Shown here: in pieces, positions 42,968-62,331 of the stretch
Layout: the number at the start of each line of letters is the position of its first letter
Position numbering within the stretch: the first letter of the stretch is position 1
Source of the DNA: Bacteroidota bacterium
GTDB taxonomy: Bacteria > Bacteroidota > Bacteroidia > 2-12-FULL-35-15
Length of the DNA: 64,000 nucleotides
Direction: 5' to 3'
Assembly (NCBI GenBank): GCA_021323165.1
Contig: JAJTCJ010000001.1
Coordinates: 14,205 to 78,204 of the forward strand
Notes under the pieces: generated by a model
Told to the model about the DNA's origin: nothing
Database searches by the model: none
What the model saw: only the letters and a program-made list of their open reading frames with translations
Translations under genes and position numbers: made by a program

Positions 42968-44257
42968 ATGAAAATGAAGTTTTTACCTATTGTCTTAATG
43001 TTACTTTTCCCGCTTTGTCTTTTATCTGACAAGGTGAACATGAGCAGCGGCACTAAACACGTTGAAGTGAGAAAGCAGGGAAAAAATTATAAACTGTATG
43101 TTAATGGTTCACCCTACTTTATCAAAGGAGCGGGTGGGTACACCCATTTTGAAGATTTAAAAAAATATGGAGGGAATTCCGTTAGGCTCTGGAGCACGAT
43201 CGGGGCTAAGAAATATATGGACAAGGCCCATGAACTTGGATTGACTGTTACTTTAGGTCTTGATATGGAACTTGAAAGAAGAGGGTTTGACTACAACAAT
43301 AAGAAAGCAGTTGCAGAACAACTAGAGCGTCTAAAAAAGGAAGTCCTTGCGTTTAAAGATCATCCCGCTTTATTAATGTGGGGAGTAGGAAACGAGCTGG
43401 ATCAGTTTGCTCAGAATTATAATGTCTGGAATGCTGTTAATGATCTGGCTAAATTCATCCATGAAGTTGATCCGCATCATCCAACTACAACAATGCTTGC
43501 AGGAGTGCCCTTGCACCACGTAAAGGAGATCATGAAGAGGGCTCCTGAAATAGATGTATTATCCCTTAATGCGTTTCTCGATCTTCCGAATGTTCGCGGA
43601 CACCTGAACCGTGCCAATTATAAGGGCCCTTATCTTATCGGAGAATGGGGGGCTTCCGGATATTGGGAATCACCATTAACTCCGTGGGGTGCATTCATAG
43701 AACAAACGAGCACAGCGAAAGCCGAAATGGTGGAGCAATATTATCAGTCTGCAATAGCCGGCCACCCTGACAGGTGTCTGGGTTCTTATATATTTTACTG
43801 GGGATACAAGCAAGCGCGTACTCACACTCTTTTGAGTATGTATTTGGAAAGCGGGCATGAAACGGGCATGCTTGACGTAATGGAAAAATACTGGACAGGA
43901 AAAGATCCCGCTAATAAAGCACCCGAAGTGTTGCCAATTGGTATTGATGATAAACAAACCCATCTTGGTGTCTACCTGGCGCCCGGATCTTCTCACATGG
44001 CTTACACGGATTGTAAAGATCCTGATAACGACACATTATATTATTATTGGGAAGTCTTTCATGAAAGCCAGGAAAAGAAAGAAGGCGGAGACAAAGAGGA
44101 AAAGCCTGAAGCAATCGATGGCTTGATCATTAATGGAAAAGGTAAAGCTTTGTCTTTTAAGGCACCGAACAAACCAGGCCCTTACAGATTGTTTCTTTAT
44201 GTTTATGACGGCAAGAATAAAGTGGCTACAGCAAATGCACCGTTCTATGTGAATTAG
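42968..44257 (+). CDS. Secreted clan GH-A glycoside hydrolase (GH2-TIM-like, probably GH158/GH157-type) with C-terminal Ig domain
   Basis: Signal peptide; NGSPYFIKG, GGNSVRLW, WGVGNE (E143), YLIGEWG (E226); Ig-like tail PGPYRLFLYVYDG. Confidence 0.8.
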   Translation: MKMKFLPIVLMLLFPLCLLSDKVNMSSGTKHVEVRKQGKNYKLYVNGSPYFIKGAGGYTHFEDLKKYGGNSVRLWSTIGAKKYMDKAHELGLTVTLGLDMELERRGFDYNNKKAVAEQLERLKKEVLAFKDHPALLMWGVGNELDQFAQNYNVWNAVNDLAKFIHEVDPHHPTTTMLAGVPLHHVKEIMKRAPEIDVLSLNAFLDLPNVRGHLNRANYKGPYLIGEWGASGYWESPLTPWGAFIEQTSTAKAEMVEQYYQSAIAGHPDRCLGSYIFYWGYKQARTHTLLSMYLESGHETGMLDVMEKYWTGKDPANKAPEVLPIGIDDKQTHLGVYLAPGSSHMAYTDCKDPDNDTLYYYWEVFHESQEKKEGGDKEEKPEAIDGLIINGKGKALSFKAPNKPGPYRLFLYVYDGKNKVATANAPFYVN

Positions 44258-44558: not shown

Positions 44559-46994
44559 TTATTTTTCAGTATTCATCGTTAACAATGCGCTCATATGTGT
44601 GTTTAGCGATTGAACCCATCCGGCCAGTCGCATATGACTTACTTTTGTTTTATCAGGATATTGCATCGCGATATTAACAGTTTCCAAAGGATCATTTTTA
44701 AGATCATACATTTCAGTTATGTTCTTTGTCGCATTGAAAATGTATTTTTTATCTCCCTCTCTGTAACCAAAAAGAAAATCAGCCCATGGGGTAAAAAAGA
44801 AAACCCGGTCTGATTCGGTTTTAGTAAACAGATCACTTCCCTGCCATTTTTCAGAAACAGGAAGTCCCAGCTGATTCATAATTGTTGGAGCAAGATCTAC
44901 CAGGCCTCCAATACCGGGCTGATGTTCTCCTTTAAACGAAGGATTGATTAACACACATGGTACATGAAGATTTTCTTCATAAATACCTGAGGCATGATTA
45001 AATTGATTGTGTCTTCCGAATGCCTCACCGTGATCGCCAACAACTACCACAAGAGTTGATTCTGACAATCCATTATTTTTAAGATCATCCAATAATTTCC
45101 CTAAAACCTGATCACTGTGATTAACTGCATTTAAATATTTATTGAACATCGGATCAGGTGTATAAAATTTTTCATTCCCGGAAGTAAAATACGGATAGTG
45201 GGTTTGATAGGTCCACATCATGGAAAAGAAAGGTTTGTCTTTTTCCTGATTTATCCAGCTCATCATATCGTCCGAAGTGCAGATGTCATCTTTCCCATCA
45301 AGAAAATCCCAGTTCTTATCGTTTACTTCAAAGTGTTTACTGCATTCGACAGTGCTGCAATCTTTAATATTATCGAATTCCCTGTTGGCTAAAAATTCCC
45401 CGGCTTTTTGAAAACGATTATCTGCAGAATTAAAAAATGCTGTGCGGTACCCATGCTTTTTAAGTTCAGAACTGATCGTAGGAATCTGAATGTCCGGATG
45501 TTCTTTTGTTATGCTGTTATAAGATAACCAAGGATACACCGATCCCAAAATACTCACCATTGAATTGTTTGTGGCTGGAGCATGCGCATAAACATTATCG
45601 AATACAATCGATTCTTTAAGGTGTTTTTCCAGTTCAGGTGTTATTTTATATGTTCCGGAGTACGGTTGAACATATTCTGCCGGAGTTGATTCCATTACAA
45701 AAACGATCACATTTTTAATTGCGGAATTTTTCTTTGATTGGGTTGTGATATTTAATTTCGGGCTCAAATCAAATTTTAAACTATCCTCTACATCCATTGT
45801 AAAAAGTTCCGGATCCTCGGAAAACGGGCCCAATGAACTTGTAAAGGCAACCACCGGATTGGCAAGCTTATTATATTCCCAATTATAGTGCTGAATTGCG
45901 TCAGGTGCAAGAGTTATATAAATTGCACTGCTGCAAACCAAAGAAGAAAGCAAAGTTCCTTTCATTCGTAATTTCTGAAGGAGTATATCTGTAACAAGAA
46001 TAATTGTCATTACAGAAATAAAGGCCGCTGTACAAACCATAAGGATTTGCAGGCAGTATGTAAGAGAAATATTTGAAGTCACAGCAGCCTGCGCATCCGA
46101 ACTTTTCAGGAAATCAGAATAATATAACCATGGATAGTTAAAAGGTTTTCCTATTGTCTGCACCACACGGATGTTCAAAATGCCGGCAACAAAAGAGAAC
46201 AGTGCTAGTCCTATGAATGATCCTGTCAGATATTTCTCTGCTTTAGGTTTGTGTCTGAAAACTTTAAGCAGAATCAGGAAAACTCCAGCAAGTATCAGGG
46301 TGTAAACAACATCATAAAATCCGGCCCACAGAACTTTTGGAAAGGATCTGAAGGGATGAAAGTATAGATCCCAGCATTGTCCCGTTACTGAAGAACGTAT
46401 AAAAACCAATCCCAGAGAAAGCACTATCGCAGTGGCCGCAATAATTTTTACCGGACCGGCATATATTGGCATTCCTTTAAAGCGGTAGGATCTTAATATC
46501 AGGAAGAAGAAAAATAATATTGTTGATATACTCAATAGCGGAATTGCAAAGTCGAGAATTGTTACCGGATCGCCCGGGCGGATCTTTAATTTGGATGGAA
46601 TAAGAACGGTATTGTTATTTATCGCCATCGTGTGATAGTCTTTCTGCGGCTCTTTATTAGTGTCCCAGATATCAACAGGTTTTTTTGCCGGTCCTTTTGA
46701 TATCCAGAATACATAATCTATCATCGTGTTCTTCGGGACTTTGAGATCTACCACAAAACAATGAGCCTTTTTTTTCATCGGACTAAAAACAAGATTGTCT
46801 TTAATATACGATCCTTCAGGCCTTAAGGATGTCGCAGCGATCTGCCAGTTGTTGACTCCCCAAACAAAAAACATTTCTTCTGCCTCTGAAGTTACATACC
46901 TTATTTCTTGTTTCACAAGAGTATCATTAACCTGTGCACAAATAATCGCAGGTAAAATATTTAAGAAGGCTAAAAACACAAGTAATCTTTTCAT
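44559..46994 (-). CDS. LtaS/BcsG-like membrane phosphotransferase (alkaline phosphatase superfamily) with N-terminal CBM25/53-like domain
   Basis: Signal peptide; VWGVNNW...IDYVFW...WDTN...DYH; 5-6 TMs; VFVMES, APATNNS (Thr nucleophile position), QTHYPY, GDHGE. Confidence 0.78.
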   Translation of the reverse strand: MKRLLVFLAFLNILPAIICAQVNDTLVKQEIRYVTSEAEEMFFVWGVNNWQIAATSLRPEGSYIKDNLVFSPMKKKAHCFVVDLKVPKNTMIDYVFWISKGPAKKPVDIWDTNKEPQKDYHTMAINNNTVLIPSKLKIRPGDPVTILDFAIPLLSISTILFFFFLILRSYRFKGMPIYAGPVKIIAATAIVLSLGLVFIRSSVTGQCWDLYFHPFRSFPKVLWAGFYDVVYTLILAGVFLILLKVFRHKPKAEKYLTGSFIGLALFSFVAGILNIRVVQTIGKPFNYPWLYYSDFLKSSDAQAAVTSNISLTYCLQILMVCTAAFISVMTIILVTDILLQKLRMKGTLLSSLVCSSAIYITLAPDAIQHYNWEYNKLANPVVAFTSSLGPFSEDPELFTMDVEDSLKFDLSPKLNITTQSKKNSAIKNVIVFVMESTPAEYVQPYSGTYKITPELEKHLKESIVFDNVYAHAPATNNSMVSILGSVYPWLSYNSITKEHPDIQIPTISSELKKHGYRTAFFNSADNRFQKAGEFLANREFDNIKDCSTVECSKHFEVNDKNWDFLDGKDDICTSDDMMSWINQEKDKPFFSMMWTYQTHYPYFTSGNEKFYTPDPMFNKYLNAVNHSDQVLGKLLDDLKNNGLSESTLVVVVGDHGEAFGRHNQFNHASGIYEENLHVPCVLINPSFKGEHQPGIGGLVDLAPTIMNQLGLPVSEKWQGSDLFTKTESDRVFFFTPWADFLFGYREGDKKYIFNATKNITEMYDLKNDPLETVNIAMQYPDKTKVSHMRLAGWVQSLNTHMSALLTMNTEK

Positions 46995-47006
46995 GATACG
47001 TAAAAT

Positions 47007-50000
47007 CTAATAAACCTTAATCGGAACAGAGGCGGTGGCCACATTCCCGCTCTCATCACTCACGTGCAGATATAATCTGTAGGTTGCTTTTTTTTCCGGG
47101 ATCATAACTCTTGCTTCCGATACATTGTCTGTAGAGCTGATCGCATCTATTTTTTCCAGGTATTCATATTTTTGAAGGGTCCATTCGTAGTTCAAACCTT
47201 CTTTATCTCTGCCTTCTACAATTGCGGTGAAAGTGAATTCTTCTCCGGGTCTGATCTTGTCAGGGGCCTTAATTCTGCAGAATCCAGCTGTATATTTCGA
47301 ATCTTTTCCTGTCCATAATTTTTTCAAAGCGTGGTAAGAAGCTTTGGGTCTTCCGCTATAGTCTGTAAGTCCGAACCATGTGTGAGTCCCTTCCATCCTG
47401 TCGTGCCAGCAATATGCTATTCCTCCAATGTTATAGCCGGCATTTCCTTCAACATATTTAGTCCATTGTTCAGTATACCAATCTGCTTTTTCTTTCTCAC
47501 TGTCTTCAACTAAAAGTGTTCTGGAAGTTCTGTTATACTTAGGATCCCAATATCCGCGAGGCCCGAATTCGGAAATAACATAAGGCCTTGTAGAATCGAA
47601 CTGATAGAACACATGATTGAGTTTTGAGATCTGTTCTTTATAATAAGAGTTTATTCCTATAACATCTACTGAAGGTATAGCGTCATGATAAGCAACAAGT
47701 TCTCCAGGCAACTGATATTCTTCATGTTCCATACAACTAAAAACAGGTCTGGTCGGGTCGATCGCATGAATACGCTGAGCAAGTAATTCGATCATGTTAA
47801 CATAGCTCTGACGAACCTTTGTCAGGTAAGGCTTGTTAAAATTATGCTTAAGCAATCCCCAGGTTTCATTACCAAGCGACCATGCAAGAACAGAAGGATG
47901 ATCTTTAAATTCACGAACCATTTCTTCTACACCCGCCATGTATTCTTCAACCTGTTCACAATCCTTATAATAATCAACTTTCGGATCAAACCAAAAGCCA
48001 TACAAGACATTCAGATTATACTCACCGGCAATATTGAGTACATTTTTATCATAAATTCCATGGTCATAACGTCTGATCGTATTAGCTCCCATCTCTTTAA
48101 TTTTCTGCATATCTTTTTCAACCTGTCTTCTGGTTAATGGCATATTTCCATCTCTCCAGTCATGCGCTGTATTATAGGCTACTCCTTTTATATAGAAAGG
48201 TTTTCCTTTGATCATCAACTTGAAACTTCCTGTATTTCCAGTGATAAATTTTGAATGATATTTTTTATCAGGTTGTACTGCTATACTCGTGATGTCATAA
48301 AATGTTTCTTTATTGAAAGGAGAAGCAGACATGCTTTTTTCAATGCTCACAATGGTATTATTATCAGCCAGATTAAAATCTGAAACATACTGTTTACCAT
48401 TTATATATTTCGGTTTTGTCTGATCAAACAAAATGGCTGCATGTATCTCTTTGTATTTTTCTTTAATATTCCTGAAAGCGTCCGATAACCATTCTCCCTG
48501 CTGGTTGCTGGAAACTGAACCTAACTCAGTGATTATGTAAGGTTTTTGAAACTGACTGAAACTGGTACGGAATGGTTCATATAATTGAGCAAATGAATAT
48601 CTGTTTTTAGCATTCAATGCTGCTTCATAATTCAAACAGCTCACTCCGATCCAATCAAGGAATTTAGGTCCGGGATAAAAAGCGGTTGAAGTTGAATACT
48701 TTGGATTCCACACCCAGGTTACGTTAGAGGTTCCGAGATCATTAAAGAATGTATAGATGTATTGCCATGCTTTTATAAATTCCTGCGGTGAATTGGAAGT
48801 ATGAGTAAGGCCGTCATTATCATCAAAGCCCGGAGAAAAGTTAATGAGCACTGGGTCTTGGAATGCTCTCAGAGTTCCTGCGAAGCGCTCAAGATAATCA
48901 TCATACTTTCCTGAAGATATGCCTTTCCACATTTCATCATTGATCAAAGGTGTTTGCCATATGATCATAGGCATGGTTTTCAAGCCTTTAATTTTAGGCA
49001 GATTTTGATTGATCGTTATAGTGGTATCCCAAGGTTCTTTAAATGAAACAATCTCTGAATTATTATCGAAAAGAACATTTGTATTATTTATTTTTTTAAG
49101 ATCAATTTTTTCATCCAACGTTATTCCGGTGAAAAACCCGCCAAAATCCTTTTGCTTTATTGAGCTACCCGTTTCTTGTTCATTATCGATACTGTTATAG
49201 CTTAAAAACAATAAAGCACTCCCGAGTAGCAGAGCTACAGGTCCATTTCTAAGCAAACCATAAATAATGTGTTGGGTTTTGTCTGCCACCACATGAATAT
49301 TTTTATTTAAAACAGATACTAATGAAACAGAACTCATTTTAACCTGAAGATTATCAAGGAATTTCTGCTGGCTCATAAAAACTATCAGTCCAAGCATTCC
49401 GGCATTTATCAATGCATAAAATGCCATGGCAAGACTGTATGGGGACCAATCCAATGTTAATCCATAAGCGATACCGATTCCGCAGATTAGCGCTATAATA
49501 AAATTCGGAATGCTTAATTGCCAGTAGTTTTGATGCTCGTCTTCCTTTGGAGTCGGTATATAAGGAACTTTAATGTTAAAAATGGCATATATAAATCCGA
49601 TTAAAAAGATCCACCAGGTTGCTGTGCGCAATATTCCTCCTGCCAGATGAAATCCCCGTTCGTGTTTTTCAAGTAACCACCGTTGTGCGAAAAGCCTTAT
49701 TATCATTGATAATCCACATAAAGGAATAAAGAACATCCCGAAATTCTGCAGATCAACTTCCCATGGTACTTCGGCAAAAGATAAGGCCAGCAAAGGAACG
49801 AGGATATCAATAAAATTGATCAGGCCAAAAAGGAAATACATTGGAATGGTGAAGTAATGTATTTTTTGTCTCCACGTGAAATTTTTATAAAGTTTTGGGA
49901 AGGTGTTGAACAACAGATCAAATGTGCCTCTTGACCATTTAAGCTGTTGTTTATAATAAGATGATAGTGTTGCCGGAACTAATCCGCGGGTTAATATTTC

Positions 50001-50867
50001 AGGAATGTAAATAGATTTCCATCCTTTTGCATGCAGTTGCATGGCAGTATGCATATCTTCTGAGAGTCCAGCGGCATGCCCACCAATTGAATCCAGCGCA
50101 CTTCTTCTAAAGGCACAGTTTGCACCGATAGCCTGAACAGTCCCGTAGGTATTCATGCACATCATCATGGGACCATAAAAGTGATATGTTTGTTCAGCGG
50201 CTCCTCTCGCAATTATACTTTCATTCTGATTGCCGTATGCCTGGACGCTCTGAACAAAACCTATTTCCGGATCTTCAAAATAAGGAAGAACGCGATCGAT
50301 GAATTCAGGAACAGGGACGTGATCGGGATCCAGGACAATTGCAATATCACCCGTTGCTTGTTTCAAAGCATTATTAATATTTCCTGCTTTTGCATTTATT
50401 TTTTCAATCCTGGTAACGTGGATAATTCCTAATTCATCACAAACTTTTTTTAACACCGGATCATTTCCTTCATCACACAGATAGTTTGTATGAGGATAAC
50501 GGATCTCTTTCATAGCACGCAATGTGCGAATAATCATTTCCTGTGGTTCTCCCGGGCAGGCAGTTGTAAGAATATCGACTGTATATTTGGTTTTTAATTC
50601 CGGACGGACAGGAATGCTGAGGCTCCAGTAGTGATACCATTCATGCAGCATCTTTACCATTTTAAAGAGCAAAGCAATGGTCAGCAACCAAAATATGGGC
50701 TTATAGCCAATATGTGCCGGGCTGATAAACCACCAGACAAAAATGCCCATTAACCCAAGTCCGCATCCAATAAGGACACGAATTGTCCACACGTCTTTCT
50801 TTTTTATTTCCGAGATCTTTATAGTCTCATTTTTAGTGTTTTCGTAGCTTTTCATCATTCCCTTCAA
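47007..50867 (-). CDS. Processive GT2 polysaccharide synthase fused to a GH26-like and a clan GH-A (GH158-like) domain
   Basis: CDEG, KAGNIN, DPDH, SED, QQLKW (49935-49949), TM block; GH26-like WVWNP, DWIGVS, IITELG; then KGKPFYIKG, WSLGNE, VISEFG and Ig tail. Confidence 0.85.
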   Translation of the reverse strand: MKGMMKSYENTKNETIKISEIKKKDVWTIRVLIGCGLGLMGIFVWWFISPAHIGYKPIFWLLTIALLFKMVKMLHEWYHYWSLSIPVRPELKTKYTVDILTTACPGEPQEMIIRTLRAMKEIRYPHTNYLCDEGNDPVLKKVCDELGIIHVTRIEKINAKAGNINNALKQATGDIAIVLDPDHVPVPEFIDRVLPYFEDPEIGFVQSVQAYGNQNESIIARGAAEQTYHFYGPMMMCMNTYGTVQAIGANCAFRRSALDSIGGHAAGLSEDMHTAMQLHAKGWKSIYIPEILTRGLVPATLSSYYKQQLKWSRGTFDLLFNTFPKLYKNFTWRQKIHYFTIPMYFLFGLINFIDILVPLLALSFAEVPWEVDLQNFGMFFIPLCGLSMIIRLFAQRWLLEKHERGFHLAGGILRTATWWIFLIGFIYAIFNIKVPYIPTPKEDEHQNYWQLSIPNFIIALICGIGIAYGLTLDWSPYSLAMAFYALINAGMLGLIVFMSQQKFLDNLQVKMSSVSLVSVLNKNIHVVADKTQHIIYGLLRNGPVALLLGSALLFLSYNSIDNEQETGSSIKQKDFGGFFTGITLDEKIDLKKINNTNVLFDNNSEIVSFKEPWDTTITINQNLPKIKGLKTMPMIIWQTPLINDEMWKGISSGKYDDYLERFAGTLRAFQDPVLINFSPGFDDNDGLTHTSNSPQEFIKAWQYIYTFFNDLGTSNVTWVWNPKYSTSTAFYPGPKFLDWIGVSCLNYEAALNAKNRYSFAQLYEPFRTSFSQFQKPYIITELGSVSSNQQGEWLSDAFRNIKEKYKEIHAAILFDQTKPKYINGKQYVSDFNLADNNTIVSIEKSMSASPFNKETFYDITSIAVQPDKKYHSKFITGNTGSFKLMIKGKPFYIKGVAYNTAHDWRDGNMPLTRRQVEKDMQKIKEMGANTIRRYDHGIYDKNVLNIAGEYNLNVLYGFWFDPKVDYYKDCEQVEEYMAGVEEMVREFKDHPSVLAWSLGNETWGLLKHNFNKPYLTKVRQSYVNMIELLAQRIHAIDPTRPVFSCMEHEEYQLPGELVAYHDAIPSVDVIGINSYYKEQISKLNHVFYQFDSTRPYVISEFGPRGYWDPKYNRTSRTLLVEDSEKEKADWYTEQWTKYVEGNAGYNIGGIAYCWHDRMEGTHTWFGLTDYSGRPKASYHALKKLWTGKDSKYTAGFCRIKAPDKIRPGEEFTFTAIVEGRDKEGLNYEWTLQKYEYLEKIDAISSTDNVSEARVMIPEKKATYRLYLHVSDESGNVATASVPIKVY

Positions 50868-51034: not shown

Positions 51035-51499
51035 TTATACCCCGGATTCTCCTGATTCATCTTCTCTATTATATTTCTTGGAGTCAAGTCCTGATCCCAT
51101 GGATCTCCCTTCACCTCCTAATTCAGTGTTTTCACCACCTTTAGAGTTTCCAAGATTTTTATTCTTTCTCAGGTCGAGTTCGGCCTTTACATCATTATCG
51201 CCTTTGGCTTCAAACGGATCGTTTTCCCAATCCTCTACGTGTATGGATTTACTTTCACCTGTTATTCCACCTGTTTCTTTCCCTACTTCACCACCTTCAC
51301 GTTTATTGTCAACGGCCATGCTGCCTTTACCCAGGCGACCTTCTTTTCCTAAACCTTCAATATCTTCTTTTTTATTGGAAACTTCTCCCATACCACGGCC
51401 CGGTGTCTTCTTTTCCTCCTCTTTTTTACCTAGAGAAGCATTACTTTTATTTGTTAATCCGTTGCCGTTTTCATCTGTCGTTTTCATAATAACCTCCAT
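51035..51499 (-). CDS. Small Gly/Glu/Lys-rich, probably disordered hydrophilin-like protein
   Basis: 154 aa almost free of hydrophobic or aromatic residues; followed by its own terminator. Confidence 0.7.
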   Translation of the reverse strand: MEVIMKTTDENGNGLTNKSNASLGKKEEEKKTPGRGMGEVSNKKEDIEGLGKEGRLGKGSMAVDNKREGGEVGKETGGITGESKSIHVEDWENDPFEAKGDNDVKAELDLRKNKNLGNSKGGENTELGGEGRSMGSGLDSKKYNREDESGESGV

Positions 51500-51650: not shown

Positions 51651-53783
51651 ATGTACAAATACTTCCCTAAGATATTTATAGTTTCTTTTTTTTGCTTGCA
51701 GGTTTTTATTTGTCAAGGACAGATTCCTCAGTTTATTGTAAAGGGTGAATCTTCTTATACTGATACTTTAAAAAAACCAGCTCAAAGCAATACTTTAACA
51801 GCTTTAAGAGCTCATAATTTCCTGGGAGCTTATTATGAAGGAATTAGTAATTATAAGAATGCTCTTTTTCATTTATATAAAGCAGACAAATTAAATTCCG
51901 GTAAATACAGCGATGAAGAAGTTTTTTGCAGCAATTATCTCGGATACATTTACTGGCACAAAAGCGATTATAAGATCGCCTTATATTATCACAATAAAGC
52001 TCTTTCCTTAAGCAACGACCCAGGAGTTAAGAGGGCGAATGTCGCATTTACGTATCTATTACTGGGTGAGGATTATTATGACCTGGGCGATTACGAAAGG
52101 ACATCAGAATATTTTTTTAAATCTCTGAATTTGTCGGAATACATCAATGATAGTGTAGGACAGATCATGTCCCATAATAGGCTTGGAAAACTTTATTATA
52201 AGCTGAAAGATTTTCCTCGTTCCAAAGAACATGCATGGAAAGCTATGAATATAAACAAGAAAATAGGTTATATCCGGGAGCTAGCTGTTTCAAATAATTG
52301 TTTAGGTAATTCTTATATCGCCACAGGAAATACAGATTCGGCAGTCCTTTGCTTTAAGCAGGCTCTTTTTTATTTTAAAAAATGCGGAGATGTTATAGGT
52401 CAGGCAATAGCAAGCATTAATCTGGGAGATTGTTATAGTGAATTATATAATAAGTTATCAGACATGGCAATCCTTGATCAGGCACACGACTATTATAAAA
52501 TGTCTTATATGTTAAATGAAAAAGTGAATAATAAGTTCGGAATGATCTACGGGCTTTGGGGTGTTGCTGATATTGACATGATAAAAGATGAAACCGGGTC
52601 TGCATTAAAAACATATCATAAAGCACTTCACCTTGCCAGGCTTATCGAAGCAAGAAGTGAACAATATAACCTGTGCTGGAAAATTCATAAAGTATATGAG
52701 AAGAAAGGAACTAAAGACAGCAGTTATGTTTATCTGAAGAAATACGTAGATCTTAAAAATTCAATGGAAAACGAAGAGCAGACAAAAATGCTTTTACGTC
52801 AGGAAAGCAAATATGAGATCACGAAGAAAATTAATGAGAAAGATGCTGCTTTAAAAAAGGATATGTTAATCGAGGAAGAGAAACAAAAGAGAAAAAACTT
52901 TGTAATCCTTGCTATTATTTTAATAACAATTGTATTGGGAGTGGCTGTTATCATTTCTTATAGGAGACTTCGTACAATTCGTTCACAGAATCAAACGATA
53001 AATTCAATTAATAACACATTAATAACTCAGAAAAAAGAAATTACTGACAGTATCACTTATGCAAGGAGAATACAGGAGGCAATCCTTCCTTCAGAAGCAT
53101 TGCTGAAAGAGGCATTTCCGGAAAGTTTTGTTCTTTACCTTCCTAAAGATATTGTTGCAGGAGATTTTTACTGGATGGAACGGCAGGGGGAGAACACTTT
53201 GATCGCAGTTGGCGATTGCACCGGTCATGGAGTTCCGGGAGCAATGGTAAGTGTAATTTGCAGTAATGCACTAAACAGAGCGGTTTTAGAATTTGGAATA
53301 ACAGATCCCGGTAAAATTCTTGATAAAACCCGGGAACTGGTTGAGGAAGCGTTTTCAAAAAGTGATAAAGATGTAAATGATGGGATGGATATTTCTCTTG
53401 CAAGCATTAATCTGAAGTCCGGAAGGGTTCTTTGGGCAGGAGCAAATAACGCCTTATGGTATATCTCTTCTTGTCAGTTCCATGAGGTTGCTCCACATAA
53501 ACAATCTATCAGCAAAACAGAAGGCTCAAAGCCATTTCCAACACATTCAGTTCAATTAAATAAAGGAGATATTCTGTATATGTTCACTGATGGTTTCGCA
53601 GATCAGTTTGGTGGTGAGAAAGGAAAGAAATTCAAGTATAAGCCGTTAAAGGAAACTGTGTTCAAAAAATCAAACATGGCTATGGCCGAACAAAGAGAAG
53701 TTTTAAAAATGATCTTTAATCAATGGAAAGGCAATCTTGAACAGGTGGATGATGTCACCATTCTTGGAATAAGGATAGGATAA
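51651..53783 (+). CDS. Membrane sensor: periplasmic TPR repeats, TM, SpoIIE/PP2C phosphatase
   Basis: TPR-like repeats, TM ILITIVLGVAVII, KDIVAGDFYW, GDCTGHGVPGA, DGMDIS, FTDGFADQFGG, VDDVT. Confidence 0.9.
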   Translation: MYKYFPKIFIVSFFCLQVFICQGQIPQFIVKGESSYTDTLKKPAQSNTLTALRAHNFLGAYYEGISNYKNALFHLYKADKLNSGKYSDEEVFCSNYLGYIYWHKSDYKIALYYHNKALSLSNDPGVKRANVAFTYLLLGEDYYDLGDYERTSEYFFKSLNLSEYINDSVGQIMSHNRLGKLYYKLKDFPRSKEHAWKAMNINKKIGYIRELAVSNNCLGNSYIATGNTDSAVLCFKQALFYFKKCGDVIGQAIASINLGDCYSELYNKLSDMAILDQAHDYYKMSYMLNEKVNNKFGMIYGLWGVADIDMIKDETGSALKTYHKALHLARLIEARSEQYNLCWKIHKVYEKKGTKDSSYVYLKKYVDLKNSMENEEQTKMLLRQESKYEITKKINEKDAALKKDMLIEEEKQKRKNFVILAIILITIVLGVAVIISYRRLRTIRSQNQTINSINNTLITQKKEITDSITYARRIQEAILPSEALLKEAFPESFVLYLPKDIVAGDFYWMERQGENTLIAVGDCTGHGVPGAMVSVICSNALNRAVLEFGITDPGKILDKTRELVEEAFSKSDKDVNDGMDISLASINLKSGRVLWAGANNALWYISSCQFHEVAPHKQSISKTEGSKPFPTHSVQLNKGDILYMFTDGFADQFGGEKGKKFKYKPLKETVFKKSNMAMAEQREVLKMIFNQWKGNLEQVDDVTILGIRIG

Positions 53784-54558: not shown

Positions 54559-56073
54559 ATGAAAAAAATATTTTATATAACAGCCCTGTTTATATCGGCC
54601 TGCAGTTCAGAAGAAACAAAAAAGGCAGCCTCTGTTGATTTTTGTTCCTCTATTCATCTTGATAATAATATAGGATTATCCTCTCAGCTCGACTCTCTAA
54701 TTCCTCAAATGGAGAAAAAAACAGGCGTATATATTCTTGAAGAAGGTGATGCATCGATGGTTGCCCGTGCCTGGCTTTGTGAGAATGCTGAGAAGACAAT
54801 AGATGTTCAGTATTTCATTTTTTCTACAGACAATGTCGGCTTGATAGCGGCAGATTATCTCGTAAGGGCGGCTGATAGGGGCGTGAAAGTTCGCATTCTG
54901 ATTGATGATATTCTGGTAGAAGCAGATGAAGAAAAACTGCTGACACTTGATTCGCATAAAAACATAAGTATAAAGATCTATAACCCTGCTGTTAACGTAG
55001 GAAAAAATGCTGCTGAAAAAATTCTTGCTCTGAAAGGAGACTTTTGGGGCACAAACCAGCGCATGCATAACAAGACTTTCTCTGTTGATGGGAAGATAAC
55101 AATTACCGGTGGTAGAAACATAGCGGATGAATATTTTGATTATGACCATGAATATAATTTCCGCGACAGAGATGTCTTATTATTAGGAAAGGTTGTAAAG
55201 GATGTAGAAAGTTCATTTGAAAAGTTCTGGGACAGTCCTATTTCAAAAATGGTGACCGACCTGGTAAATCCCAATAGATACAAAGTGGGCTCAGAACCAT
55301 TTAAAGAATTGCATAATTATGCCTGTGACTCAAACAATTTCTGGCCTCAGATAAGAACAAGGATCATGAATGTTCCACAAGCATTTAGGGACATTCGACA
55401 GTCGGGAAAATTTCAATGGGTAGAAACTGTGACTTTTGTAAGCGATATTCCTGGGAAAAACAATGAATCTTTAAAAAGTGGCGGGATCACTACTGATACA
55501 TTAATGGCTTTGATCAGGAGAGCAAAACAGTCAGTTATTATTCAATCACCTTATCTGGTAACAACAGAGAAAGGAAAAGAATTGCTGGCTGCTGCAGTCA
55601 AGCGTGGTGTAGAAATTAAAATACTTACAAACAGTCTTGCTTCAACGGATAATTTACCAGCTTTCAATGGATACCAAAGGGACAGGGAGCTGTTGTTAAA
55701 GACAGGAGTAAGAATCTTTGAATTTAAGCCTGACGCACTTATTCGTTATAAGATCATGACCGGATCACTGCAGAAAACAATAAGTTATAAGCCGGTATTT
55801 GGAATTCATGCCAAAACTATGATCGTAGATGATGAAATTGCTGTAGTGGGTACTTTCAATTTTGACCCACGCAGCGCTTATCTCAATACTGAATGCATCA
55901 CTTTGATCTATTCCGGGAAAATTGCGAAAGAGGTAAGAGAAGGGATTGAGGAAGAAATGAAATATGAAAATGCCTGGGAAACAACCTTAAACTTTAATCC
56001 CGATACAGAAGCCTCTCTGAAGAAACGAATGCAGATGAAACCGATGAAGCTTATTCCAAAAGATATCCTGTAG
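54559..56073 (+). CDS. Phospholipase D / cardiolipin synthase C-like lipoprotein
   Basis: Lipobox ISAC; two HKD motifs HNKTFSVD and HAKTMIVD; GGRNIADEYF, GTFNFDPRS. Confidence 0.9.
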   Translation: MKKIFYITALFISACSSEETKKAASVDFCSSIHLDNNIGLSSQLDSLIPQMEKKTGVYILEEGDASMVARAWLCENAEKTIDVQYFIFSTDNVGLIAADYLVRAADRGVKVRILIDDILVEADEEKLLTLDSHKNISIKIYNPAVNVGKNAAEKILALKGDFWGTNQRMHNKTFSVDGKITITGGRNIADEYFDYDHEYNFRDRDVLLLGKVVKDVESSFEKFWDSPISKMVTDLVNPNRYKVGSEPFKELHNYACDSNNFWPQIRTRIMNVPQAFRDIRQSGKFQWVETVTFVSDIPGKNNESLKSGGITTDTLMALIRRAKQSVIIQSPYLVTTEKGKELLAAAVKRGVEIKILTNSLASTDNLPAFNGYQRDRELLLKTGVRIFEFKPDALIRYKIMTGSLQKTISYKPVFGIHAKTMIVDDEIAVVGTFNFDPRSAYLNTECITLIYSGKIAKEVREGIEEEMKYENAWETTLNFNPDTEASLKKRMQMKPMKLIPKDIL

Positions 56074-56149: not shown

Positions 56150-58021
56150 ATGAAAATTCTTTTCTCTTTTGTTTTTTTATTTCTGTCAGCATCTGGTTTG
56201 TACTCTCAGGCAGGTCAGCTGAAATATATAATCTATGATTTTGATGGTCTTGATCTCGGAGTTACTGATCTGCCTGATGGGGATTACAAAAACTTCGATC
56301 TTACTTATGAGATTTCTGCGAACCCTTTGGCAGTCAGTGATGTGCTGGGCGACCGTGTGTTAAAACTTAATCTGATGTGGTCTGGCGGAAGCGGGGAGTT
56401 TGGAAAGGGAATCACAAGGTATATTGAGCTAAATGCTTCAAGCGACCACCTGAATTTTTATTTTTTAAATCCGGTTTCTAATTATGCAAGCGCTGTTGTT
56501 GATATTGCTATTAAAGAGGATGATAACCAAAATGGAATTTATGAAGTTTCTGCTGATGATAATTGGTTGAAGACAATAACTATCCCCAAGTCATCTGCCT
56601 GGCAGTTGATCAGTGTTCCTTTGTCTGATTTTTCAGATGCTTCAAGCGGAGGCAATGGTATTTTTGATGCTGCTTATACGAGTAATAAAGGCAGAATTTT
56701 TACTATCAGTTTTAAATTTAACAGATCAGCTGCAGCCACGGGACCTGAAACTTATTATGCTGATATGTTCTGTTTTTCAGAAGGAACATTACCGTATGGC
56801 AACTCAATTCTTTCTCTTCCTTTCGATAATTCAAATAATAAATGTCTGCTTGGAAGTTATGCTTACCGAACGCCTGCGGATTCTGTACCACCAGAAGTGG
56901 AAGCTTTATTATCTCCCGGCAATAAGCTGAAGTATATTAATATTTTTATGCCATACGCATATAACGGAACAACAGCTTCAGCACTTCCGGGCGCATCAGT
57001 TCAGAGATTAATGAATAACGGTTATCGCCCGATTATAACCTGGGAGATGATGTATGCTTCGTATCAAACCATGGATCCGGTCCAGCCAAGATTAAACCAG
57101 ATAACAAATGGTTCTTTTGATAGTTACATCGATCTGTTTGCGAATCAGATCAAGACTTATTCAGATACGATAATTATACGTGTGTTTCACGAATTCGATG
57201 GCAATTGGTATTCGTGGTCAATAGAAGAGAACGGACAAGACCCTGCAAATCTGGTTGCAGCATACAGATATATCGTTGACAGGTTTAATGCTCTTGGGGT
57301 TGATAATGTGCTCTGGATGTGGTCTCCCAATTCTTCTCCCTCTCCCAATGTTTCATATAACTGGTTTGTGGATGCTTACCCGGGAGACGCATATGTTGAT
57401 ATTGTGGCGACCAGTATATACAATCATCCGTTAACAGGAACACCTCCGTGGCGTTCTTTCAGATCATTGCTATCCGAAAACTATTATTATATGCGGAAGT
57501 ATTTTCCATCTAAGCAGTTTTTTATTGCTGAAGCGGCTTGCAGGGAAAGATATGGGAATGAAATGTCATCCTCACAAACAAAGGCGGAATGGATATGTCA
57601 GATGAGTAAGGATCTTAAATCATATTTTAATGCGACTAAAGCACTTGTCTTTTTTAATGCAGATAAAGAACACGACTGGAGAATTAATTCTTCTGCCCCG
57701 GCTTTAAATGCACTGAGTAACTGTGTATGGAATGATCCTTACTTTAATAATGCTTTAACTGAAGTTATAGAGAAAAAAGAGAATGGTTCATTTGAAATTT
57801 ATCCGAATCCTTTTATTGAAGAGATTACTGTTTCTGTTTTATCAGAAAAAATGCTGCAGGAGGATTATTATTTGAATGTAATTAATATACATGGACACAA
57901 AGTTTATAATAAAAAAGTTTTAAGAAGTCAGACTATTGGCAAATCATTTCTGCCAGGAACATATATCCTTGAATTGAAAAACACCAAGCACTCTGAAAGG
58001 CGAATAATTATTAAACAATAG
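56150..58021 (+). CDS. T9SS-secreted GH26 with N-terminal CBM11-like domain
   Basis: Signal peptide; beta-sandwich WQLISVPLSDF; RVFHEFDGNWYSW acid/base, AYPGDAYVDIV, FIAE nucleophile; CTD IYPNP...GTYILEL. Confidence 0.85.
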   Translation: MKILFSFVFLFLSASGLYSQAGQLKYIIYDFDGLDLGVTDLPDGDYKNFDLTYEISANPLAVSDVLGDRVLKLNLMWSGGSGEFGKGITRYIELNASSDHLNFYFLNPVSNYASAVVDIAIKEDDNQNGIYEVSADDNWLKTITIPKSSAWQLISVPLSDFSDASSGGNGIFDAAYTSNKGRIFTISFKFNRSAAATGPETYYADMFCFSEGTLPYGNSILSLPFDNSNNKCLLGSYAYRTPADSVPPEVEALLSPGNKLKYINIFMPYAYNGTTASALPGASVQRLMNNGYRPIITWEMMYASYQTMDPVQPRLNQITNGSFDSYIDLFANQIKTYSDTIIIRVFHEFDGNWYSWSIEENGQDPANLVAAYRYIVDRFNALGVDNVLWMWSPNSSPSPNVSYNWFVDAYPGDAYVDIVATSIYNHPLTGTPPWRSFRSLLSENYYYMRKYFPSKQFFIAEAACRERYGNEMSSSQTKAEWICQMSKDLKSYFNATKALVFFNADKEHDWRINSSAPALNALSNCVWNDPYFNNALTEVIEKKENGSFEIYPNPFIEEITVSVLSEKMLQEDYYLNVINIHGHKVYNKKVLRSQTIGKSFLPGTYILELKNTKHSERRIIIKQ

Positions 58022-60005: not shown

Positions 60006-60228
60006 GATATTAATTTTTAGTTACTTAATTATACAATAAAATTTCATGCTATATACCGGCATGAGCTTTCCGGAGCGGAACAACGCTTAAAAGCCCGTCA
60101 ATGCAGACTTTACGAAGGTTGATCTATGTGGATGATTTTCCTCTTTTGGTTGCGTTTAAACAAACTTGTATTGTTTCTTTTATCAATTTCAGTTACTTTT
60201 AAGCTTTCCCTCAATTCTCATTCTCTTT

Positions 60229-62331
60229 ATGGGTAAGCATATATTTAGATTTATTACAACAGCTCTGTTTACATGTCTTATGTTTTTTTGCGCACAGTGT
60301 CAGATAAATACAATTGATTCTTTGCGAAAAGAAGTGATCAGACTCGAACATGTATCTCCGGGAATTACAAAAGATACATCTCTTATAAACGCTTATTATT
60401 CACTCGCAGAAGAATTTTACAACGAAGATAATCATACGATGGAACAGGTTTACACAAATCTGGCATTGGAGATCATTACACCATTACTTGAAAAACCGGT
60501 AAAGGATAAAAAGTTAGAAAAGTGGCTTATTCATGAGCAAAGCACAGGGTTTGGAAACAAAGGAAGCTATTATCAGGATATAGGTGATCTTCCGAAAGCA
60601 CTGGATTTTCATTTTAAGGCATTAAGGAATGATGAAGGGATTGATCATACAATCGGCATAGAACGACACCTGTGTAATATCGCGATCGCCTATGGTGATC
60701 TGAATGAACATAAGAAATCATTGGATTACTATTTTAAGGCACTTAAGTATGCTAAGAAAGCTAAGGCAAAGGATTCTGAAGCGAATCTTTATGGAAATAT
60801 AGCTACAGCTTATTATTATCTTAATGAGAATGATAAGGCTTTGATGTATGAAAGCAAGTCTCTTGAAATGTTTAAGGAATTAAAGGACACTTCGGGGATT
60901 GCTTTTGTGCTTGGTAATATTGGTGTTACTTACAAGGATATAGGTCAGGATAAAATGGATGCGGGGAAAGATCCGAAAGACATTTCTGAATTTTATACTT
61001 CTGTTGTCTATTATAAAAAAGCGCTTTCTCTCATTGGTCCAAACGGAGATAAATCGACAAGAGCCATTGATCTTGGCAGCCTTGGCTCGGTTTATACAAG
61101 CATTGGAAATTATGCTGAAGCAGAAAAACATTTACTCGCATCTATGGAGCTATCCAAAGAAATAAATGATCTTTTTGGAATAATGGAGATCAATGAAAAT
61201 CTCAGTGAACTTTATTTTGCTATAGCCGCACAGAAGAATATAAGTCCACAAGCAAGAGCAGGATTTTTAGAAAAAGCGTATCAAAGGATGATTGATCATA
61301 ACACTGCTAAGGATTCACTTTTTAATAAAGACAAGACAGATGATATTACCCGCAAGGAAATGAATTATGAGTATGAAAAGAAAGAGGCGATAGATATGGC
61401 TACCAGGGAGGCAGAAAAGCGAACGCAGCGAATAATTATTATTTCGGTGATAAGCCTTATGCTTTTATCGCTGATTTTTTCTGTTTTTATTTTCCGTTCA
61501 TTCCGGATCGCTAAAAAGCAAAAGAAGCTGATTGAATTTCAAAAGCAGGAAGTGGAAGAACACAGAAAAGGGATTATTGATTCCATTACATATGCTAAAC
61601 GAATTCAGGAAGCTTTATTAAAGGATGAGGACCATGTAACAAAACATTTGCCCGAGCATTTTGTATTATATAAACCTAAAGATATTGTATCCGGTGACTT
61701 TTACTGGAGCACGGAAAAAAAGGGCCATTGGTATATCTGTGTTGCTGATTGCACTGGTCACGGAGTACCTGGTGCTTTTATGAGTATGTTGGGCATTGCT
61801 TATCTTAATGAAATTAATGCTTCTGAAGAATTGTTTGGTCCTGCAGAAATATTGAACAGGCTACGGGAAAAAATAGTGAAGGAATTAAAGCAAACCGGAA
61901 GCAGCGGGGAAAGTCACGATGGAATGGATATCTCAATGATGCGCCTGAATCTCCAAACAAAGGAAATGGTCTGGGCAGGAGCTAATAATGCATTGTGGAT
62001 CGCGGTAAATGAAAATGGTGAAACTGTAATAAGGACCATTGAACCGGATAAACAGCCTATAGGTTTTACATTCGAACCGGAGCCTTTTACGGAACATGTA
62101 TTTCAACTTGATCATAGGGATACGGTCTATTTGTTTAGCGATGGTTATGCAGATCAGTTTGGGGGTCCGAAAGGAAAAAAATTCAAGAGTAAACAATTAC
62201 AGGAAAAACTTTTGGATATAAACCAAGAGGCGTTGTCAGCTCAGAAAGAAATCCTTGAACAGAGCTTTGAGCATTGGCGTGGTGATCTTGAGCAACTTGA
62301 TGATGTCGCTATTATAGGAATAAGGGTTTAA
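60229..62331 (+). CDS. Second TPR-TM-SpoIIE/PP2C sensor phosphatase (start probably ATG 60229)
   Basis: TPR-like repeats, TM, KDIVSGDFYW, ADCTGHGVPGA, DGMDIS, FSDGYADQFGG, LDDVA. Confidence 0.9.
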   Translation: MGKHIFRFITTALFTCLMFFCAQCQINTIDSLRKEVIRLEHVSPGITKDTSLINAYYSLAEEFYNEDNHTMEQVYTNLALEIITPLLEKPVKDKKLEKWLIHEQSTGFGNKGSYYQDIGDLPKALDFHFKALRNDEGIDHTIGIERHLCNIAIAYGDLNEHKKSLDYYFKALKYAKKAKAKDSEANLYGNIATAYYYLNENDKALMYESKSLEMFKELKDTSGIAFVLGNIGVTYKDIGQDKMDAGKDPKDISEFYTSVVYYKKALSLIGPNGDKSTRAIDLGSLGSVYTSIGNYAEAEKHLLASMELSKEINDLFGIMEINENLSELYFAIAAQKNISPQARAGFLEKAYQRMIDHNTAKDSLFNKDKTDDITRKEMNYEYEKKEAIDMATREAEKRTQRIIIISVISLMLLSLIFSVFIFRSFRIAKKQKKLIEFQKQEVEEHRKGIIDSITYAKRIQEALLKDEDHVTKHLPEHFVLYKPKDIVSGDFYWSTEKKGHWYICVADCTGHGVPGAFMSMLGIAYLNEINASEELFGPAEILNRLREKIVKELKQTGSSGESHDGMDISMMRLNLQTKEMVWAGANNALWIAVNENGETVIRTIEPDKQPIGFTFEPEPFTEHVFQLDHRDTVYLFSDGYADQFGGPKGKKFKSKQLQEKLLDINQEALSAQKEILEQSFEHWRGDLEQLDDVAIIGIRV

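Follow-up and report, generated by a model that had tools for sequence, protein, structure and literature searches.

Why should a putative glucan synthase carry, on its own polypeptide, a glycoside hydrolase domain that has lost its acid/base? The question is raised by a gene in a 64,000-nucleotide stretch of DNA from a Bacteroidota bacterium (GTDB lineage Bacteria; Bacteroidota; Bacteroidia; 2-12-FULL-35-15; GenBank assembly GCA_021323165.1, contig JAJTCJ010000001.1, positions 14,205 to 78,204 of the forward strand), which is referred to here as the window. The gene encodes a BcsA-like family GT2 glycosyltransferase fused to a GH26 barrel, in which Pro-Gly stands where the catalytic His-Glu would be expected, and to a GH158 barrel with an apparently intact catalytic pair. 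We lean towards the explanation that the GH26 barrel has been retained as a non-catalytic module holding or positioning the glucan ahead of an active GH158 domain. The features on which this turns are:

47007-50867, minus strand: whole fusion open reading frame, with GT2 synthase, extra transmembrane helix, pseudo-GH26 barrel, GH158 barrel and immunoglobulin-like (Ig) domain, 1286 residues
48318-49151, minus strand: lichenase-type GH26 (beta/alpha)8 barrel, catalytically degenerate, residues 573-850 (Pfam, phmmer, Foldseek)
48828-48833, minus strand: Pro679-Gly680, where GH26 enzymes have the His-Glu pair with the acid/base (BLASTP, family alignments)
48525-48527, minus strand: Glu781, the kept GH26 nucleophile, aligned with E222 of CtLic26A and E461 of the free GH26 described below (alignments)

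The fused GH26 barrel and its acid/base position

Scans of the fusion with Pfam and NCBIfam assign a cellulose-synthase-like GT2 domain to residues 86-495, GH26 to residues 690-766 and a TIM barrel labelled "GH2_C" to residues 883-1102, followed by a PKD-like tail; an identical database protein, P0004, starts four residues later. The Pfam GH26 match (PF02156) is marginal, at 20.7 bits with a cut-off of 20.2. The best match of the domain in both sequence and fold is CtLic26A, the CelH enzyme of C. thermocellum (2bv9, 2bvd, 2cit), with which its nucleophile also aligns, and since the similarity is significant in sequence (phmmer E 1e-11) as well as in fold (Foldseek E 5e-17, template modelling (TM) score 0.81-0.82) the assignment to GH26 is not a chance effect. 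The AlphaFold2 (AF2) model of residues 560-1286 has a predicted local distance difference test (pLDDT) score of 81.8 and a predicted TM score (pTM) of 0.81, with the GH26 domain at a pLDDT of ~80-95. An earlier interpretation made from the DNA alone, here the sequence-only reading, had placed a GH26-like barrel at 48330-49140, which corresponds to residues 576-846 of this domain, and had proposed a comparison with GH26 structures; the Foldseek superposition on CtLic26A (TM 0.81) bears it out.

In GH26 enzymes the acid/base is the Glu of a His-Glu pair after strand 4 and the nucleophile a Glu after strand 7. The fused domain retains the second, as Glu781, and lacks the first. The segment NFSPGFDD, in which the sequence-only reading had seen His-Glu replaced by Pro-Gly, is found at residues 676-683 (48819-48842) on the minus strand, a strand that the reading had not given, and the nucleophile motif that it described as remaining, IITELG, at residues 778-783 (48519-48536). 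The intact enzyme with which it had compared the fusion is likewise present in the window:

56150-58021, plus strand: free lichenase-type GH26 (P0002) with intact His-Glu and Glu and a type IX secretion system (T9SS) sorting tail (motif RVFHEFDG at 57179-57202)

BLASTP aligns the fusion with this free GH26 at E 1e-14, with 25% identity over 189 residues and no gap through the motif, pairing INFSPGFDD of the fusion with IRVFHEFDG and IITELG with FIAEAA. Sister fusions in the family alignment read RFAHE(F/P/M)DNP.Y in the columns of the Pro-Gly of the window protein. The free GH26 serves as a bridge to CtLic26A, its H347-E348 and E461 aligning with H108-E109 and E222 of that enzyme, so that the change from His-Glu to Pro-Gly is reproduced by all three routes. 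In a direct HMMER alignment of the fused domain with CtLic26A the loop gaps are placed otherwise, and there is still no acidic residue opposite E109; none was found opposite the acid/base in any of the three alignments of the fused domain. A misalignment behind the apparent loss was considered and is ruled out, the BLAST alignment, the MAFFT family alignments and the His-Glu columns of the sister fusions being concordant.

E109 of CtLic26A, which we take to be the acid/base, is said to have had its role, and E222 likewise, described by Taylor and colleagues in 2005. Ala occupies the E109 position in the covalent-intermediate structure 2cit and in 6zpl chain C, and the fused GH26, in which H108-E109 is replaced by Pro-Gly, in effect amounts to a naturally occurring equivalent of the E109A variant of 2cit. 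The following loop also differs, ANGDWYPW of CtLic26A being replaced by a short, low-confidence DDNDG in the fusion.

Distribution of the loss and constraint on the barrel

A word-index search returned 21 fusions and an exhaustive phmmer search with the GH26 domain 4485 relatives; many of the best 150 of these 4485, which were examined, are proteins of 1230-1390 residues with the architecture of the fusion. The survey comprises 124 fusions, including 80 loci added from species-representative genomes, and the trees were built from the GT2 and transmembrane region only, so that they are independent of the dyad trait. Most fusions outside the clade of the window protein read RFAHE(F/P/M)DNP.Y and AEFGS in the MAFFT alignment, an intact GH26 dyad, and the window clade reads F(S/A)PGFD, with variants PC, NG, PT or NF, or deletions. 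In the first tree the window clade is monophyletic, with the GH26 dyad lost in 20 of 20 members and a Shimodaira-Hasegawa-like approximate likelihood ratio test (SH-aLRT) support of 99, and the sister branch, at support 93, is P0024, in which neither dyad has been lost. In the enlarged tree the clade has 40 members, all 40 without the His-Glu/Glu set (support 99). What the sequence-only reading had described for one protein, and had proposed to survey in homologous fusions, is thus a property of the clade, with an intact sister in P0024.

Two loci inside the window clade, L009 and L012, read FAPEFD; since they keep Pro-Glu the decay appears to have been stepwise, and the pattern suggests that the change from His to Pro came before the loss of Glu. 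Of 20 clade members, 15 keep the nucleophile Glu781 and the other five have S, N or G at this position. The decay is wider than the dyad. When the clade consensus was compared with 18 intact fusions, taking as conserved any position shared by at least 80% of the latter, 13 conserved positions were lost in the consensus, and 12 of the 13 are changed in the window protein. They include TWEP after strand 3, R676, H679, E680, N683, P684 and Y686 around strand 4, and S816, D819 and W831 (now Phe) near strand 8; the thirteenth, F814, is still Phe in the window protein. With the acid/base lost throughout the clade and the catalytic centre more widely decayed, the label of pseudo-hydrolase, already used in the sequence-only reading, is justified, the alignments indicating a domain that would no longer work as a retaining hydrolase.

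Has a domain that decays in this way been abandoned by selection? Within the window clade the mean pairwise identity is 0.77 for GT2, 0.42 for GH26 and 0.72 for GH158, and the GH26 domain changes 3-4 times faster than the domains beside it. L009/L012 is the one pair whose synonymous sites are not saturated; for it the ratio of nonsynonymous to synonymous substitution rates (dN/dS) is 0.04 in GT2, 0.17 in GH26 and 0.06 in GH158; in the other pairs examined dN of GH26 is ~3-5 times that of GT2. The open reading frame is intact in the 40 clade members, and no deletion of the GH26 domain was found among those of full length. Together with the value of 0.17 from the single pair, this describes a pseudoenzyme, with its catalytic residues lost and purifying selection kept. 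Some 14 residues are invariant solely in the window clade (Q702, Y705, T706, F707, N709, L711, S714, T717, C744, R767, K775, Q790, K818 and F831), and from the alignment they point to a newly constrained surface. Relaxed yet persisting constraint is thus observed alongside the architecture, the acid/base loss and its phylogenetic pattern.

The barrel could have become a structural relic, a folded spacer between the last membrane helix and GH158 that binds no glycan. Its accelerated evolution, the deletion or scrambling of the loop after strand 4 in several clade members and the loss of -1 subsite residues, including the Trp831 position that is now Phe, would all be expected of such a spacer. 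A dN/dS of 0.17 is, however, well under neutral, the ~14 newly invariant residues speak of surface constraint rather than mere decay, and the domain has been retained over a divergence that saturates synonymous sites, so that we regard a relic as rather unlikely.

Across the 124 fusions, GH26 is lost and GH158 intact in 63, both are intact in 38, GH26 is intact and GH158 lost in 13, and both are impaired in 10. Those with both intact include proteins of cultured Algoriphagus, Aquiflexum, Belliella, Cyclobacterium, Mariniradius and Pontibacter. GH26 decay is recurrent, requiring at least 12 parsimony changes. At least 474 species representatives carry the GT2-GH26-GH158 architecture, those listed being mostly Bacteroidota with some Verrucomicrobiota.

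A second clade of fusions presents the mirror image, with the GH26 dyad intact and the Asn-Glu and Glu of GH158 not conserved. Its members, all metagenomic, are P0046, P0053, P0057, P0060, P0062, P0066, P0072, P0098, P0120, P0123 and P0125; in place of Asn-Glu they have ND, NN, NA, NP, DQ, GT and others, often Asn-Asp. Here GH158 is the fastest domain, the mean pairwise identities being 0.60 for GT2, 0.39 for GH26 and 0.27 for GH158. P0053 and P0057 combine Asn-Asp with a kept nucleophile Glu, and some of the Asn-Asp domains scored as lost may still be working. A test for a negative association between the losses of the two domains was not significant, there being too few independent events, and among independent pairs differing in GH26 state none shows the opposite change in GH158, so that the reciprocity is descriptive only.

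Fusions of the same architecture also occur at L044, L045, L053, L054, L065 and L079, in metagenome-assembled genomes labelled Phycisphaerales, Chthoniobacteraceae, Chthoniobacterales, Luteolibacter and Rhodospirillales; either the family extends beyond Bacteroidota or those bins are contaminated. At L026, L027, L030, L034, L035, L056, L058, L061, L069, L074, L075, L077, L078 and L080-L082 the tblastn span is ~5.0-5.3 kb instead of ~3.8 kb, although the open reading frame bearing the GT2 motifs has ~1250-1340 residues; these loci may contain a paralogous stretch next to the fusion, or a gene that is split or extended.

Synthase, GH158 module and the possible role of the barrel

What the barrel might do depends on the domains to either side of it, which are:

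49368-50612, minus strand: BcsA-like GT2 catalytic domain and membrane channel region, residues 86-500 (Pfam, NCBIfam, BcsA structures)
49200-49259, minus strand: extra C-terminal transmembrane helix, residues 537-556 (hydropathy, charge distribution; helix 538-551 in AF2 model numbering)
47010-48257, minus strand: GH158 module, TIM barrel and C-terminal Ig-like domain, residues 871-1286 (phmmer, Foldseek)
47865-47873, minus strand: GH158 acid/base Asn1000-Glu1001 in GNE, residues 999-1001 (alignment with GH158 structures)
47562-47573, minus strand: GH158 nucleophile Glu1100 in SEFG, residues 1099-1102 (alignment with GH158 structures)

The GT2 part matches the BcsA structures 4hg6 and 5ej1 with E 2e-39 and has the GT-A motifs and flanking channel-forming helices of a BcsA-type processive enzyme: DPD at residues 180-182, SED at 269-271 and QQLKW at 307-311, the last with a Lys, invariant across the fusion family, in place of the Arg of QxxRW. 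Hydropathy gives seven hydrophobic helices and one interface-like helix, and with the order of charges the arrangement reads as two N-terminal helices, the cytoplasmic glycosyltransferase, two helices, the interface-type helix, the segment PYIPTPKED and two further helices. PYIPTPKED resembles the FxVTxK gating loop. A Lys-rich linker then leads to the additional helix, C-terminal of the channel helices, from which only ~17 residues separate strand 1 of the GH26 barrel. With a BcsA-like topology the C-terminus would be periplasmic. An AF2 model of residues 5-880 was considered as a guide to the position of the barrel relative to the channel and was dropped, the confidence of its membrane part being too low.

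The fusion thus resembles BcsA-BcsB (4hg6, 4p00) in its GT2 core, with DxD, (S/T)ED, a QxxRW-like motif and a gating-loop-like segment, and in carrying a periplasmic module on a single helix beside the channel. It differs in having QQLKW for QxxRW, in the absence of a PilZ domain from the fusion in the Pfam and NCBIfam scans, and in the absence of BcsB (PF03170) from a genome of 89.6% completeness. Its periplasmic module consists of covalently fused hydrolase folds rather than the carbohydrate-binding and flavodoxin-like domains of BcsB, and the hydrolases are not cellulases, unlike the associates of BcsA-BcsB. Lacking both PilZ and BcsB, the fusion is not to be filed as a cellulose synthase, and the cellulose framing of the sequence-only reading, which had the pseudo-hydrolase acting in place of BcsB, is doubtful, both hydrolase modules being of beta-1,3- or mixed-linkage-glucan types.

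The second of these modules, which the sequence-only reading had recognised as an active clan GH-A domain with GNE and SEFG intact, can be identified as GH158. The C-terminal 416 residues match the TIM barrel and Ig domain of GH158(Pro) (9oro, chain residues 55-423 of 424) at E 4e-35 and BuGH158 (6pal) at E 9e-27 with phmmer, and Foldseek gives E 1e-28 with TM 0.76-0.79. GNE and SEFGPRGYW align with the known catalytic residues, with the chain index of GH158(Pro) offset by 8 at both positions, and both motifs are invariant in the window clade. N136, E137 and E220 of BuGH158 have been validated by mutation (PMC7157763), while E143 and E229 of GH158(Pro) were assigned by structural comparison (PMC13195107). 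The fusion shares with these two enzymes the TIM barrel with Ig, the N-E acid/base, EFGPRG.W and the equivalent of Trp236; it differs from them in being the C-terminal module of a membrane synthase, BuGH158 and GH158(Pro) being secreted degradative enzymes encoded in polysaccharide utilisation loci (PMC7157763, PMC13195107). All characterised GH158 enzymes need beta-1,3 linkages at the -2/-1 subsites (PMC13195107). From its conserved motifs the GH158 domain of the fusion is most likely active, cutting or remodelling the chain. GH26 enzymes of the CtLic26A type act on mixed-linkage glucan, beta-mannan and beta-1,3-xylan being the other substrates of the family. Because of these two specificities the product is more likely to be a glucan with beta-1,3 linkages than cellulose.

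The favoured explanation, which we consider probable, can then be set out as follows. The BcsA-like processive GT2 would make the glucan at the inner membrane, and the extra membrane helix, in place of PilZ, would carry the C-terminus into the periplasm, where it would form tandem clan GH-A barrels, a lichenase-type GH26 and then a GH158 endo-beta-1,3-glucanase with its Ig domain. In the ancestral fusion both hydrolases would have been active. In the window clade, which is of uncultured Bacteroidota, His would first have changed to Pro and then Glu to Gly, followed by the loss of most other residues of the GH26 catalytic centre and, in some members, of the nucleophile. Purifying selection would have kept the dead barrel as a non-catalytic module ~17 residues from the membrane, where its most likely task is to hold or position the glucan as it emerges and to bear the active GH158, which would cut or remodel the chain. 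The periplasmic location, the binding of glucan, the order of contact between chain and domains and the beta-1,3-containing product are all presumed in this account, and a role as guide or ruler, as put forward in the sequence-only reading, or as holder is plausible from the position of the barrel and its retained constraint. The GH18 chi-lectins, such as YKL-40, and the C-terminal barrel of PgaB are likewise barrels that lack the catalytic acid and have stayed under selection, and for the chi-lectins binding has been demonstrated.

Several observations weigh against a non-catalytic holder. The window protein, like 75% of the clade, still has Glu781, a hint of some residual role for the old active site, and Asp682, Asp683 and Asp685 lie directly after Pro-Gly in a loop, DDNDGLTH, that has a pLDDT below 50 in the AF2 model. 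The dN/dS value comes from one pair, which is of the Pro-Glu rather than the Pro-Gly type. The conserved aromatic residues are mostly shared with active relatives and may be core residues, so that they are no proof of a binding cleft, and the AF2 model of residues 5-880, which is poor (pLDDT 67, pTM 0.44, transmembrane region below 50), cannot place the barrel over the channel exit. PgaB, moreover, is a cautionary precedent, its C-terminal barrel having long been held to be binding-only before it was shown to be a hydrolase (PMC5933820).

Taken with the persistence of the ITELG strand, the kept Glu781, the three Asp residues and the history of PgaB could mean that the fused GH26 is still an enzyme, with another acid/base drawn from Asp682, Asp683, Asp685 or a residue of the GH158 or Ig domain, or that it is a Glu781-based transglycosylase acting on an activated or strained nascent chain. 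Asp682, however, is also present in His-Glu-bearing relatives, at the D/N of HExD/NG, and is therefore no replacement; conservation in the clade is 70% for Asp682 and 45% for Asp683, the nucleophile is gone in five of 20 members, and neither the change of 12 out of 13 catalytic-centre positions nor the 3-4-fold faster evolution of the domain is what an active enzyme would lead one to expect. Even taken jointly, the two forms of this explanation are improbable.

Neighbouring genes and related systems

Directly downstream of the fusion, and co-directional with it, lies a gene that bears on a further possibility:

44559-46994, minus strand: LtaS/OpgB-like sulfatase-fold membrane transferase

Among the 80 related loci an LtaS-like gene adjoins the fusion in 14 of 41 with GH26 lost and in 0 of 33 with both domains intact; the transferase is specific to the window clade, though phylogeny confounds the association. 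Its presence suggests that in this clade the glucan may be decorated with phosphoglycerol or phosphoethanolamine. That the dead barrel serves chiefly as a docking or presentation platform for the transferase, holding the chain during decoration, would suit this association, the resemblance to both OpgB and LtaS and the new clade-specific invariant residues of the GH26 domain, but it has only a slim chance of being right, given an association that amounts essentially to one clade and several clade members with no transferase gene nearby. Tentatively, and as a broader conjecture that we would not rate as likely, the fusions may constitute an undescribed, self-contained system for a beta-1,3-containing glucan, possibly periplasmic and resembling the osmoregulated periplasmic glucans (OPGs), with two partly redundant hydrolases of which different lineages inactivate one or the other; in the window clade the dead GH26 would have been co-opted, along with the newly recruited transferase, to hold and decorate the chain.

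The best functional analogue of the fusion, in function only, would seem to be NdvB of Pseudomonas and Bradyrhizobium (PMC10237404), in which membrane helices likewise link a BcsA-like GT2 to a clan GH-A barrel that is periplasmic and specific for beta-1,3-glucan, with neither BcsB nor PilZ. The periplasmic GH17 of NdvB is proposed to cleave and cyclise the nascent beta-1,3-glucan (PMC10237404). The order of NdvB is periplasmic GH17, transmembrane region and cytoplasmic GT2, whereas in the fusion it is reversed, with the hydrolases C-terminal; NdvB has a single GH17, and the fusion has two barrels, GH26 and GH158 with Ig, one of them a pseudoenzyme. No GH17 match was found in the fusion. In the literature no paper was found on the combination of GT2, GH26 and GH158, nor on glucan synthases of Bacteroidota. 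Synthase-dependent polysaccharide systems almost always come with a hydrolase of debated role, as with BcsZ, PslG, PelA, AlgL, PgaB, OpgG/D and the GH17 of NdvB. Here there are two, both fused to the synthase, and either can lose its catalytic residues while the fold stays. The natural series of variants, with both domains intact, GH26 lost or GH158 lost, some of them in cultured Algoriphagus, Cyclobacterium and Pontibacter, could serve to tell apart the catalytic and the structural part played by a synthase-attached hydrolase. The fusion also draws attention to an unstudied glucan pathway in Bacteroidota, whose reputation is mainly that of beta-glucan degraders.

The remaining genes around the fusion are:

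42968-44257, plus strand: free secreted GH158 with signal peptide, GNE and GEWG motifs and Ig domain (phmmer against GH158(Pro), E 1e-82)
51035-51499, minus strand: small Gly/Glu/Lys-rich hydrophilic protein, directly upstream of the fusion, with no Pfam family
54559-56073, plus strand: PLD-family (cardiolipin-synthase-like) gene, paired with the free GH26
51651-53783 and 60166-62331, plus strand: two paralogous TPR-SpoIIE (PP2C phosphatase) genes

The free GH158, which is convergent with the fusion operon, is the most conserved neighbour; irrespective of which dyads the fusion retains, it lies within 6 kb in 60 of 80 loci, those of cultured Algoriphagus included. Enzymes of beta-1,3-glucan thus form the core of the locus. 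No OpgG/MdoG was found in the genome, an absence that is compatible with an OPG-like role for the locus without proving it. The free GH26, by comparison, is syntenic with the fusion only in L001, L006, L008 and L016 and lies within 6 kb of it in only three of 41 GH26-lost loci; at 25% identity it is not a recent duplicate of the fused domain, and it carries an extra N-terminal domain. Its pairing with the PLD-family gene is syntenic in L001 and L006. The small hydrophilic protein has a counterpart at the same position in L001, with 34% identity (E 4e-15) and a common motif, SKS.H.EDWENDP. Relative to the gene order of L001, one of the TPR-SpoIIE genes is an insertion that separates the fusion from the PLD/GH26 pair.

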